A stretch of 64,000 nucleotides of DNA, from sequence record PQ471516.1; one strand, written 5' to 3'. Origin of the DNA: Escherichia phage Turkey5. Of this stretch, positions 10,944 to 12,883 are shown piece by piece (the first letter of the stretch is position 1; every line of letters begins with the position of its first letter). Both the position numbers and the translations under genes were made by a program. Under the pieces are notes generated by a model. That model saw only the letters and a list, made by a program, of their open reading frames with translations, was not told the DNA's origin and did no database searches.

Positions 10944-12170
10944 ATGAAAATGATTACATATCAAGAATTGAATGAAAAATGGATGAGAACACATCCAAAT
11001 CAAAAAGAACCTATATTTTATTTGAATGGTATTGAAAAAGAAATTAATGATAATAATTTAAATTATATCTTCATAGGTTTTAATATAAATTGTGTATCTG
11101 AATTTAATGGTGCAAAAACTAAATTAATTTTAAAATGTCCAAATCCAAAACATAAACAGTTTGAAAACTGCACCTATAATAATTTCACAAAACTTAATGA
11201 TGGTCGTCGATGTCCAGAATGTAGTAAAGAAATGGTTGCATCTTTACATCGAAATGATACAGAAACATTTAAAATTAATTCTTCTCATGTTCATAATAAT
11301 TTTTATGATTATAGTAAAACAACATATGGTAACAATGCACATGAAAAAGTAATAGTTACGTGTCCTATTCATGGTGATTTTAAAATTCGTCCAGCTAAAC
11401 ATTATAATGGTGCTCAAGGATGTTCTAAATGTGCAGAAGAAAAGCAATTATTAGATTCTAATGATGTAATTGAACGTATTAATATTATACATGATAATCA
11501 TTTTGAATTCACAAATTTTGAATATAAAGGTATTCATAAAAAATCTAAGATAATATGCAGCAGAACTGGACGAGAATATAAAACTACTCCTAATACATTA
11601 TTGCAAGGATATGGATGTAGATTTTGTCATCAACGTTCTGAACATACATTTGAATCATTTATTGATATGGCGAATGTGAAACATAATAATAAGTACTATT
11701 ATCATTTAGCAGAATTGCAATATGACGGGTTGAAAAAATATGTAGATGTATTGTGTTCAGAACATGGAATTTTCACAGTACTACCAACTAACCACATTCA
11801 TGGTAAAGCTACTGGATGTCCGAAATGTGCTGAATATGGGTATAATAGCAGTAAAGCTGGACATTTTTACATTCAAAAACTATCAAATAACAAAAATGAA
11901 ATAGTTGCGTATAAGTATGGAATTACTAAACGATTATCTGACCGTATCATTGAGCAACAGAATACTTCAATGTATAAGCATGAATATATATACCATGAAT
12001 ATTTTGAAGATGGTGAAATTCCACCTAAACTTGAAAGAATTGTTGAAGAAAATATCATTTGTTCATACTTATCAAAAGATGAGCTTGGTAATGGGTATAC
12101 TGAAACATATGAGCCTAAATATCATGAGAAAGTTTTAAATTTAATAAAAACTTTTTTAGATAAAAACTAA
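10944..12170 (+). CDS. homing-endonuclease-like protein: tandem zinc-ribbon modules plus C-terminal GIY-YIG-like (T5orf172-type) domain
   Basis: four repeats of C-x-x-HG...GC-x-x-C; C-terminal GHFYIQ...YKYGIT...R; much more AT-rich and differently coded than flanking genes. Confidence 0.5.
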   Translation: MKMITYQELNEKWMRTHPNQKEPIFYLNGIEKEINDNNLNYIFIGFNINCVSEFNGAKTKLILKCPNPKHKQFENCTYNNFTKLNDGRRCPECSKEMVASLHRNDTETFKINSSHVHNNFYDYSKTTYGNNAHEKVIVTCPIHGDFKIRPAKHYNGAQGCSKCAEEKQLLDSNDVIERINIIHDNHFEFTNFEYKGIHKKSKIICSRTGREYKTTPNTLLQGYGCRFCHQRSEHTFESFIDMANVKHNNKYYYHLAELQYDGLKKYVDVLCSEHGIFTVLPTNHIHGKATGCPKCAEYGYNSSKAGHFYIQKLSNNKNEIVAYKYGITKRLSDRIIEQQNTSMYKHEYIYHEYFEDGEIPPKLERIVEENIICSYLSKDELGNGYTETYEPKYHEKVLNLIKTFLDKN

Positions 12171-12185
12171 AAGGAGTTGACAAGG

Positions 12186-12536
12186 ATGTTAACTGTATAC
12201 TTATTTCGCAAAGAAGAGTACTTAATGAGTCAGTACTCAAATATTGAGATTAATGTTCCATACGGCACGTATGTTGCTTATGATGAAGAAAGTGAAACAT
12301 TGCATTACTATGATGACAAATTAGATTATAGTACTGAAAAGTTTATTGAAGATGTACTAACCTGTAGTACTGAAGAAATGGTTTATGAAATCTATCTCCA
12401 GAAGTACAGAGAGCGTATGTCCAAGGTACATGCAGACGCACCAGTACTGAACATTAACCAGACTCCATCTGAATTCCAACCCACAAACCCATTCCAGCGT
12501 TTAATAGATGCTGGGGTAAATTTCCGAATTAGTTAG
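12186..12536 (+). CDS. hypothetical protein
   Basis: ATG at 12186 with aaggag SD (ORF track start 12177 is TTG); 116 aa. Confidence 0.5.
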   Translation: MLTVYLFRKEEYLMSQYSNIEINVPYGTYVAYDEESETLHYYDDKLDYSTEKFIEDVLTCSTEEMVYEIYLQKYRERMSKVHADAPVLNINQTPSEFQPTNPFQRLIDAGVNFRIS

Positions 12537-12574
12537 ATGATAAATATCTTCATAATAAAATGGAGATATTTTCT

Positions 12575-12883
12575 ATGTCACAAATATGTTATGTAATAAC
12601 TAATGCTGCTTGGCCTGAGTATGTAAAGATTGGATTTACATCTAAATCAGAAATGACAGAAAGATTACGAACATACCAAACTGCAACCCCATTCCGTGAT
12701 TTTGAAGTGTATCATGAGGTTAAGTTCCCTGATGCTAGGGTTGCAGAGAAAGAGATTCATAAAAGACTAAAGCAGATGAATGCTACACGTCAGCCTAATA
12801 CTGAGTGGTTCAAGATGCCTAAGAAGCTGGCAGCTAATATAGTTGACTCTGTACTTGACGATATGGAGAACGATTTACTTTAG
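12575..12883 (+). CDS. stand-alone GIY-YIG-like (T5orf172-type) domain protein
   Basis: CYVITN...YVKIGFT...RL...EWF motif pattern; ggag SD 10 nt upstream of ATG 12575. Confidence 0.5.
   Translation: MSQICYVITNAAWPEYVKIGFTSKSEMTERLRTYQTATPFRDFEVYHEVKFPDARVAEKEIHKRLKQMNATRQPNTEWFKMPKKLAANIVDSVLDDMENDLL

Follow-up and report, generated by a model that had tools for sequence, protein, structure and literature searches.

Does the AT-rich stretch between the capsid and tail-fibre genes of Escherichia phage Turkey5 hold a cluster of selfish homing endonuclease genes, as an initial annotation of this DNA had proposed? The window, that is the whole 64 000-nt stretch of sequence record PQ471516.1 analysed here, belongs to an Asteriusvirus jumbo coliphage whose closest relative is JNE01. 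The two open reading frames of the proposed cluster (ORF1 and ORF3) were found at their annotated positions, flanked by a gp23-like capsid gene and a tail-fibre gene, together with a third gene lying between them, ORF2, which was missing from the annotation (table 1). Our results indicate that ORF1 is most likely a free-standing homing endonuclease gene (HEG) of the T5orf172 class (a branch of the GIY-YIG superfamily), carried by a self-contained cassette between the capsid terminator and ORF2. ORF3, judged by its sequence, is a conserved resident gene of the phage lineage, strongly constrained and not visibly mobile.

Table 1. Features of the locus (positions in the window).
Feature	Position	Strand	Basis or remark
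Major capsid protein gene (gp23-like)	9660-10835	+	Pfam Gp23 4e-90; left neighbour of insertion site
Intrinsic terminator hairpin of capsid gene	10881-10905	+	terminator scan, junction alignment
Candidate sigma-70-like promoter	10892-10920	+	consensus match only
Exchanged cassette	10923-12163	+	blastn block boundaries versus JNE01
ORF1, probable T5orf172-class homing endonuclease gene, 408 aa	10944-12170	+	PHROG 681 'endonuclease' 6e-68
Four tandem zinc-ribbon modules in ORF1	11004-11837	+	Pfam matches, module alignment
T5orf172/MUG113-like nuclease domain of ORF1, C-terminal, aa 300-408	11841-12167	+	
ORF2, 116 aa (phrog_15724)	12186-12536	+	PHROG 8e-47; right neighbour of insertion site
ORF3, stand-alone T5orf172 protein, 102-107 aa	12560-12883 (start at 12575 in the initial annotation)	+	Pfam T5orf172 5e-14
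Tail-fibre gene	12924-14642		right of ORF3

The N-terminal part of ORF1 is indeed made of four tandem zinc-ribbon (treble-clef) modules of the DNA-binding type, each of approximately 60 aa. Their bounds are aa 21-96 (CapR-type), 104-166, 169-231 and 233-298 (DUF723/DUF4379-type), and the Pfam models CapR (42 bits, cut-off 24.2; 1e-10), DUF723 (35.3 bits, cut-off 20.9; 1e-8) and DUF4379 (25.7 bits, cut-off 24.5; 1e-5) all score above their gathering cut-offs. The ligands follow the pattern C-x2-4-H ... C-x2-C (aa 65/70/90/93, 140/143/160/163, 205/225/228 and 271/274/292/295); the sets are complete in modules 1, 2 and 4, module 3 being without its His, and the Cys/His columns are invariant in an alignment of nine homologues. 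The position of this array, N-terminal to a nuclease, had been called unusual, a view that does not survive comparison: homologues of ORF1 are present in 770 phage records, PHROG 681 matches the protein at 6e-68, and repeated CapR/DUF723/DUF4379 zinc fingers occur in 87% of T5orf172 HEGs (Barth, Dunham and Seed 2023, PMC10448857), the typical layout of this class being repeated zinc-finger modules at the N-terminus and a T5orf172 domain at the C-terminus.

The GIY-YIG-like character of the C-terminal domain is backed by invariant motif residues and by the predicted fold, the best Pfam models, MUG113 (19.9 bits, gathering cut-off 22.3) and T5orf172 (12.9 bits, gathering cut-off 20), aligning in the correct register at scores below their cut-offs. 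MUG113 is matched by five of the nine homologues (best E 2e-5) and T5orf172 by two, and PHROG 681 spans aa 234-407 of ORF1, the same profile region matching ORF3. The motif was defined by a Tyr in the first strand, (Y/K)xG(I/F)T in the second, an Arg in helix 1 and the catalytic Glu in G(W/Y/F)TE; the residues Y309, G326-I327-T328, R334, G384 and E387 are invariant in the nine homologues, whose identities range from 25 to 99%. The predicted model of this domain (pLDDT 89.5) displays a beta-beta-alpha-beta-alpha topology, with the three-stranded sheet and flanking helices that characterize the GIY-YIG alpha/beta fold. Metal-dependent cleavage relying on the conserved Glu was shown for one T5orf172 nuclease (cited in PMC10448857). 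Other searches were negative: Foldseek comparison of the C-terminal model with the PDB gave nothing significant, a PDB sequence search with ORF1 and ORF3 returned no match even at E<=10, the canonical GIY-YIG model PF01541 did not match ORF1 at E<=1, NCBIfam yielded no useful match and PADLOC none for ORF1. Direct hhalign comparison of the ORF1 C-terminus with ORF3 gave a weak score (E 0.014, probability 3%), both alignments being shallow.

Both ORFs had been described as AT-rich and differently coded from their neighbours, which holds for ORF1 and fails for ORF3. With a GC content of 0.271 (window mean 0.371, s.d. 0.023), ORF1 is the lowest of all 1227-nt segments, and it ranks last among the 65 genes of the window in both GC and GC3 (0.137, z=-3.1), whereas ORF3 is of average composition (GC 0.373, GC3 0.318, z=+0.6). 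Homologues of ORF1 at the same locus were retrieved from metagenome contigs that share this gene context (99% and 69% identity) and, as the closest among sequenced phages, from RaK2 and Salmonella phage 7t3 (50-51% amino acid identity); within GenBank phage records, no sequence exceeds 51% identity to this allele. A dN/dS of 0.17 against the 69% homologue points to purifying selection. The conserved start is probably the ATG at 10950, giving a protein of 406 aa. No further copy of the family was found within the 64-kb window: a weak tblastn match at 28463-28612 (E 0.04), without domain support, was discarded, as were other low-GC stretches (approx. 51.4-52.1 kb and 57.6-58.3 kb), whose ORFs are unrelated. 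In the related genomes, members of the family occupy up to 8-11 places each.

The mobility of ORF1 was assessed from the content of its site in 16 loci, taken from a pool of at least 72 related records. When the window is compared with JNE01, amino acid identity reaches 100% for the major capsid protein (MCP), 99.7% for the scaffold, 99.1% for ORF2 and 100% for ORF3, and drops to only 22% for the nuclease. Nucleotide homology ends at 10922 and resumes at 12164, according to blastn block boundaries, and JNE01 carries, in place of the window cassette, 1066 nt that code for another nuclease (J-type); the sequence of the right junction, CTAAAAGGAGTTGACAAGGATG, is shared to the letter. Across the 16 loci, the site contains W-, Q-, J- or U-type nucleases, or nothing. 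Thirteen loci are occupied, by at least four nuclease lineages and by no other kind of gene, and three phages, PBECO4, fEgEco12 and SD-6_S16, have no gene there. The 121Q-type phages harbour a third lineage (Q-type), of which EC.P1 and Munch have shorter versions (300 and 304 aa, respectively), and UE-S1 an unrelated nuclease. EC.P1 (occupied) and fEgEco12 (empty) share 100% of their ORF2 and ORF3 codons, and their right flanks are identical. The expected insertion polymorphism thus exists for ORF1, the exact site being replaced or empty in otherwise near-identical phages. Divergence in place of ORF1 and the 121Q-type gene as orthologues was rejected on two grounds: JNE01, with flanks near-identical to those of the window, has a gene of 22% identity, and ORF1 finds its closest homologues (50-51%) in other genera. 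The inclusion of ORF2, itself conserved, in the element was likewise rejected, because phages with an empty site possess ORF2 with the same ATG start.

A second signature lies in the capsid gene. The MCP of the window and that of JNE01 are 100% identical, and 21 of the 22 nucleotide mismatches between their genes fall in the last 294 nt (binomial p approx. 4e-12 for 21/22 within 25% of the gene). The same segment holds 24/25 mismatches for EC.P1/fEgEco12 and 30/32 for EcMJ/fEgEco12; in all, six close pairs differing at the site show this concentration, and two empty-site phages have capsid genes that differ by a single nucleotide. The Ser codon at 10800-10802 is TCT in four of the five W-type loci (AGC in RaK2) and AGC in 11/11 non-W loci. 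On the strength of these alignments, the synonymous differences in the last 300 nt or so of the capsid gene (approx. 10540-10835) look like a co-conversion tract; alternatively, the clustering could stem from break-points of ordinary recombination where two modules meet. Insertion polymorphism at an exact site, capsid tracts resembling co-conversion and AT-richness all speak for the selfish nature first attributed to ORF1.

The capsid terminator, a hairpin (GGGACTCG-CTTGA-CGAGTCCC) with a T run after it, is conserved in all relatives. A loop variant, TTGAC, provides the -35 element of a promoter-like site (TTGACG-17-TATAAT, 11/12 consensus) that overlaps the terminator, 23 nt upstream of ORF1, and is the best match within 10700-13000. 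Matches of at least 10/12 are found in 10 of the 13 occupied loci, 23-37 nt upstream of the nuclease gene (96 nt in 7t3), versus a best match of only 8/12 in the three empty loci. Promoter-like matches in the AT-rich region as a whole show no excess, with 17 found against 15.7 expected in shuffled sequence.

The nuclease activity, the target site and the homing of ORF1 are what we infer from these comparisons, and could be articulated as follows. The cassette would comprise a promoter, a ribosome-binding site and the ORF; the four N-terminal zinc-ribbon modules would read a long DNA target, and the C-terminal domain would cut DNA through its conserved Tyr, Arg and Glu. During mixed infection, a relative without this cassette would have its genome cleaved close to the capsid gene's end or within the intergenic region; with the cassette-bearing genome as template for repair, it would acquire the cassette along with approximately 300 nt of the capsid 3' end. 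The element's own copy may be protected by the synonymous capsid differences, by the insertion itself, or by both.

Two other origins were considered for ORF1. It might be a domesticated HEG-derived protein devoid of active homing, acting as a regulator of the capsid operon (as CapR, or I-TevI in its repressor role) or as a weapon against phages or satellites (as ICP1 Odn). Such a function would suit a first module matching the CapR homology domain, a gene directly following that of the capsid with a promoter-like site overlapping the capsid terminator, and purifying selection; furthermore, domestication of T5orf172 HEG domains is on record (PMC8096241, PMC8263062, PMC10448857). However, the gene is dispensable, since three related phages have an empty site and close relatives carry non-orthologous nucleases; the full nuclease motif is kept, whereas CapR is without a nuclease domain; PADLOC does not recognize the protein; and extreme AT-richness and flanking conversion tracts fit mobility better. 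We thus consider domestication unlikely. It is very unlikely, in our view, that ORF1 is an inactive or decaying relic, the site, a permissive intergenic 'moron' position, then owing its variability to ordinary exchange of modules rather than to nuclease-driven homing. The zinc ligand lost in module 3, the sub-threshold Pfam matches of the nuclease domain and the shorter Q-type genes of EC.P1 and Munch are in line with decay, and the site does mark a boundary between more and less conserved blocks (87-93% nucleotide identity on its left versus 72-79% on its right). Yet the frame is intact and matches the RaK2 homologue in length, no variation occurs in the catalytic columns and the dN/dS is low, the occupants of the 13 loci are exclusively nucleases from at least four lineages, and conversion tracts recur in independent close pairs. 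A homing endonuclease gene remains our preferred reading of ORF1.

The case of ORF3 is different. Its identification as a stand-alone T5orf172 domain was correct (53.1 and 49.2 bits for the two models PF10544/PF13455, for a T5orf172 cut-off of 20), and residues Y6, G20-F21-T22, R30 and E77 are invariant in seven orthologues. In PADLOC it also matches the candidate defence family PDC-S57, through the T5orf172 domain only. It had been taken for a second selfish GIY-YIG/T5orf172 homing element, in keeping with a genuine domain that retains its Tyr, Gly, Arg and Glu, with distant homologues scattered in tRNA regions of T5-like phages, and with the RaK2 locus, which is without ORF3 and has a different gene at that position. 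We nonetheless hold this to be highly improbable. ORF3 lacks a DNA-binding domain, is average in both GC and GC3, and is present in 15/15 Asteriusvirus, 7t3 and Munch loci (81-100% identity), whatever the state of the neighbouring site; in jumbo phages of Erwinia and Yersinia, its orthologue (68-69%) occurs as a single copy. Synonymous sites are saturated (dN 0.07-0.15), and divergent Asteriusvirus orthologues keep 87-91% protein identity to it, with the same codon at only 37-51% of conserved residues, which implies long residence and strong purifying selection. Uniform composition and conservation with no insertion polymorphism had been set out in the initial annotation as refuting a selfish element, and ORF3 shows this pattern. 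Most speculative of all, and hardly probable, is that the post-capsid stretch could be a dedicated nuclease 'landing pad' in RaK2-like jumbo phages, with ORF3 as a trans-acting partner (e.g. a subunit in common for catalysis or immunity, or a factor that makes the site recombinogenic through nicking or repair) and the W-type nuclease also tuning capsid-gene expression by way of the promoter built into the terminator and the CapR-like first module.

In terms of annotation, ORF1 would become a T5orf172-family homing endonuclease and ORF3 a conserved stand-alone T5orf172-domain protein. Current concepts are unchanged, and ORF1 is a typical representative of an already described family of selfish phage nucleases; the locus nevertheless offers a compact natural series, in which one site of near-identical genomes holds at least four nuclease lineages or none, next to capsid conversion tracts of approximately 300 nt. 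Through synonymous changes, such genes would recode the 3' end of a capsid gene, and in jumbo phages they would mark the boundaries of mosaicism. Culturable coliphages (PBECO4, 121Q, JNE01) are suited to an experimental homing test of T5orf172 nucleases; for the putative T5orf172 HEGs of ICP1, homing was still without experimental demonstration in the 2023 survey (PMC10448857).

Like the T5orf172 HEGs of ICP1 and of T5-like, Plateaulakevirus and VpaJT-like phages (PMC10448857), ORF1 has zinc-finger repeats N-terminal to the nuclease. It is also free-standing and adjacent to an essential structural gene, that of the capsid, capsid genes being found in 31% of T5orf172 HEG neighbourhoods (PMC10448857), and it shares with them the turnover of different nucleases at one locus and the location of the nuclease at a boundary of sequence exchange. 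It differs from them in its host, a RaK2-like/Asteriusvirus jumbo coliphage (the word 'jumbo' is absent from the text of that paper), and in its divergent nuclease domain, below Pfam cut-offs.

Closer to hand, RaK2 ORF095 and 7t3 gp0458 ('endonuclease'/hypothetical protein) also directly follow the capsid gene, and ORF1 resembles ORF095 in length (408 aa) and GC content (0.271); about half of the residues of ORF1 are common to these proteins, and in 7t3 the nuclease gene is followed by an additional ORF of 207 aa. The comparison with the T4 seg genes, put forward in the initial annotation, stands as regards lifestyle: similarly to Seg (SegA-G) and I-TevI, ORF1 would be a selfish, free-standing, intergenic nuclease gene of a lytic phage, with co-conversion of flanking markers. 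It does not extend to family membership. Indeed, Seg and I-TevI have their nuclease at the N-terminus and their DNA-binding domain at the C-terminus, an order reversed in ORF1, which moreover uses other DNA-binding modules and leaves PF01541 unmatched. Finally, ORF1 shares a CapR-type zinc-ribbon module with the domesticated T5orf172 HEG derivatives PLE CapR and ICP1 Odn. CapR has lost its nuclease domain and acts as a repressor, and Odn has a RepA_N DNA-binding domain; ORF1, unlike them, retains both parts and is polymorphic, as expected of a mobile gene.

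The DNA belongs to a jumbo coliphage in the Asteriusvirus genus (121Q/PBECO4 group). By megablast, positions 9600-14700 matched 72 phage records, the top match being Escherichia phage vB_EcoM_JNE01, which covers 67% of the query at 94.9% identity. Comparison with relatives places the start of ORF2, the right neighbour of the AT-rich ORF1, at ATG 12186 and not at an upstream TTG. For ORF1, the conserved start is probably the ATG at 10950 (M-I-T-Y...), because the upstream ATG is missing in the 99% and 69% homologues.

Gene order around the post-capsid site of the window
Feature	Coordinates	Length	Remarks
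Prohead protease	7765-8385		
Scaffold	8453-9568		
Major capsid protein (MCP)	9660-10835		gp23-like
Intrinsic terminator	10881-10905		conserved, closes MCP gene
ORF1	10944-12170	408 aa	
ORF2	12186-12536	116 aa	phrog_15724, unknown function
ORF3	12560 or 12575-12883	107 or 102 aa	
Tail fibre	12924-14642		
ORF	14748-15047	99 aa	
DNA polymerase	from 15129		

At the far end of this region, the tail-fibre C-terminus is swapped relative to JNE01, 121Q and PBECO4 (14215-14647 and the gap to 14748): homology to JNE01 ends at 14214 and restarts at 14648, a Gp53-like_C domain closes the replacement (Pfam 3.5e-14), and the assembly/chaperone gene found 3' of the fibre gene in JNE01, 121Q, PBECO4, A4 and 7t3 is missing. 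RaK2 and apparently Turkey3 lack it too. The replacement probably reflects a swap of host-range modules.

The decisive evidence on ORF1 mobility, as read from sequence, is an insertion polymorphism. The window and JNE01 are nearly identical in their MCP (100% protein identity), scaffold (99.7%), ORF2 (99.1%) and ORF3 (100%), but nucleotide homology ends at 10922 and restarts at 12164, and the JNE01 occupant of the ORF1 position, 332 aa long, shares just 22% identity with ORF1, although it is likewise made of zinc ribbons and T5orf172 (Pfam 1.2e-5). Occupants of the site, which runs from the MCP terminator to ORF2, were typed across 16 loci. The lineage of ORF1 (W-type) was found in the window, two metagenome contigs (99%, 69%), Salmonella phage 7t3 (51%) and Klebsiella phage RaK2 (50%), whose gene has the length and GC (0.271) of ORF1. 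A second lineage (Q-type, 33-37% identical to ORF1) occupies 121Q, EcMJ, A4 and Turkey3 (365-368 aa) as well as EC.P1 and Munch (300-304 aa); JNE01 carries a third (J-type), and the site is empty in PBECO4, fEgEco12 and SD-6_S16. ORF2 and ORF3 are identical between EC.P1 (occupied) and fEgEco12 (empty). In Escherichia phage UE-S1, the occupant is an unrelated protein of 552 aa that contains DUF7487 and matches REase_MTES_1575 weakly, below threshold, so a nuclease of another superfamily would also use this hot-spot.

Several junctions show further particularities. The UE-S1 gene (1628-3286 of its locus; REase_MTES_1575 is PD-(D/E)XK-like) has a TTGACA-17-TATCAT site just upstream. In 7t3, an extra 207-aa ORF without Pfam match (5100-5723 of its locus) lies between the W-type nuclease and the ORF2 homologue. 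In Salmonella phage SD-6_S16 (about 1580-1612 of its locus), the terminator T run touches the ORF2 start codon (…CCCTTTTCTTTTTTATG…), with no recognisable ribosome-binding site left before ORF2, as if a deletion had left a scar at the insertion point.

Between close pairs differing at the site, MCP mismatches pile up in the last 294 nt beside the insert: 21 of 22 for window/JNE01 (all synonymous, since the proteins are identical), 24 of 25 for EC.P1/fEgEco12, 30 of 32 for EcMJ/fEgEco12, 43 of 46 for EcMJ/EC.P1 and 32 of 39 for PBECO4/121Q. The two empty loci PBECO4 and SD-6_S16 show one mismatch across the whole gene. A serine codon (10800-10802) reads TCT in four W-type loci (Asteriusvirus and 7t3) and AGC in 11/11 non-W loci, plus W-type RaK2. 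Such clustering matches the expected trace of homing with co-conversion, without amounting to proof, as break-points of recombination at a boundary between modules could also produce it. The pattern would place the cleavage site, or at minimum the conversion tract, on the capsid side. The nuclease site also divides a better-conserved left block (8099-10920) from a less-conserved right block (12171-14321), nucleotide identity to PBECO4, 121Q, EcMJ and A4 being 87-93% versus 72-79%. This step fits the published idea of homing endonuclease genes (HEGs) as markers of genetic-exchange boundaries (Barth, Dunham and Seed 2023, PMC10448857), but may simply stem from stronger constraint on head genes.

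In the window, the loop and 3' arm of the terminator hairpin spell TTGACG, and a TATAAT whose last base is 10920 follows 17 nt on; the pair is the top sigma-70-like match in 10700-13000 (11/12), 23 nt 5' of ORF1. Because 10 of 13 occupied loci have a match of at least 10/12 at 23-37 nt (7t3: 96 nt) before the nuclease gene, against 0 of 3 empty ones (best there 8/12), this putative promoter, a consensus match only, seems to travel with the cassette. Sigma-70-like matches were not enriched overall in the AT-rich stretch around ORF1. The terminator loop (10888-10894) has two forms: CTTGA(C/T)G, doubling as a -35 box, in the window, both metagenome contigs, 7t3 and Munch, and CTTCGG in all remaining Asteriusvirus loci, where any nuclease promoter is downstream of the hairpin.

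ORF1 carries, in tandem, four ~60-aa modules (aa 21-96, 104-166, 169-231, 233-298) of pattern C-x2-4-H ... C-x2-C, the His being lost in the third, which match the CapR homology domain (1e-10), DUF723 (1e-8) and DUF4379 'treble clef zinc finger' (1e-5), all exceeding Pfam gathering cut-offs. Its C-terminal 110 residues gave sub-threshold Pfam matches to MUG113 (E 1.2e-3) and T5orf172 (E 0.17). Three further results support the nuclease assignment. PHROG 681 ('endonuclease') matched aa 234-407 at 6e-68. Aligned with eight homologues (25-99% identity), the only invariant columns besides the zinc ligands include Y309, G326-I327-T328, R334, E364, G384 and E387, the Tyr/Gly/Arg/Glu signature of GIY-YIG-type nucleases. 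AlphaFold2 modelled this domain confidently, with beta-beta-alpha-beta-alpha topology (pLDDT 89.5, pTM 0.83). As Foldseek with this model found no significant match and PDB sequence searches with ORF1 and ORF3 were empty, fold support for a predicted GIY-YIG-type domain is moderate but coherent.

The initial annotation described both ORF1 and ORF3 as AT-rich, consistent with selfish elements. For ORF1, this stands: its GC of 0.271 is lower than in any other 1227-nt window of the 64 kb (mean 0.371, sd 0.023), it ranks bottom in GC and GC3 (0.137, z = -3.1) among 65 candidate genes (long non-overlapping ORFs, hand-picked), and its replacement or absence at the site and the MCP mismatch clustering point the same way. 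ORF3, of average composition (GC 0.373, GC3 0.318), does not behave as a mobile element would. It is a genuine T5orf172 domain standing alone (Pfam 5e-14) that keeps Tyr, Gly, Arg and Glu, is matched by the same part of PHROG 681 as the ORF1 C-terminus, and occurs in 15/15 Asteriusvirus, 7t3 and Munch loci, whether the neighbouring site is occupied or empty. Its orthologues in jumbo phages of Erwinia and Yersinia are 68-69% identical, and in RaK2 an unrelated ORF of 244 aa takes its position. Positions 12575-12883 were compared with orthologues in seven divergent Asteriusvirus loci (L002, L003, L004, L008, L012-L014): the protein is 87-91% identical with dN 0.07-0.15 and saturated dS, which indicates long residence under strong purifying selection. 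The same codon is used at only 37-51% of conserved residues, a pattern that weak codon bias and strong constraint may explain, deep allelic divergence being another possible source. For the same genome pairs, this share is 59-73% in ORF2, 53-61% in the tail-fibre N-terminus and 77-89% in the MCP.

A candidate defence family of PADLOC, PDC-S57, also matches ORF3 (12560-12883; E 6e-17); the match spans the first ~90 of the 212 profile positions and runs through the common T5orf172 domain. Another low-GC stretch (51461-52802, minus strand) holds two adjoining ORFs of ~220 aa that are paralogue-like ('LVLYKFVPD' in one) and unrelated to the nuclease family, and whose N-termini look hydrophobic by eye.

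From these comparisons, we conclude that ORF1 is probably a new allele lineage of free-standing T5orf172-class homing endonuclease cassettes at a post-capsid hot-spot, with good comparative evidence of recent mobility, and that ORF3 is a conserved resident T5orf172-domain gene. The locus is thus a clean, experimentally tractable example and not a new phenomenon. T5orf172 is a GIY-YIG subfamily whose HEGs, exactly the class of ORF1, carry CapR, DUF723 or DUF4379 zinc-finger modules, often repeated, in 87% of cases, have capsid genes in 31% of their neighbourhoods and show turnover of different HEGs at the same loci (PMC10448857). ORF1 homologues occur at 1628 places in 770 phage records (up to 11 per genome), 4457 proteins of a large database match it at E<=1e-5, and RefSeq already labels 121Q gp604 and RaK2 ORF095 'endonuclease'. 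Given this survey and this large family, the zinc-ribbon/nuclease layout, initially called unusual, is the norm for the class; it stands out only against T4 Seg proteins and I-TevI, in which the nuclease domain is N-terminal.
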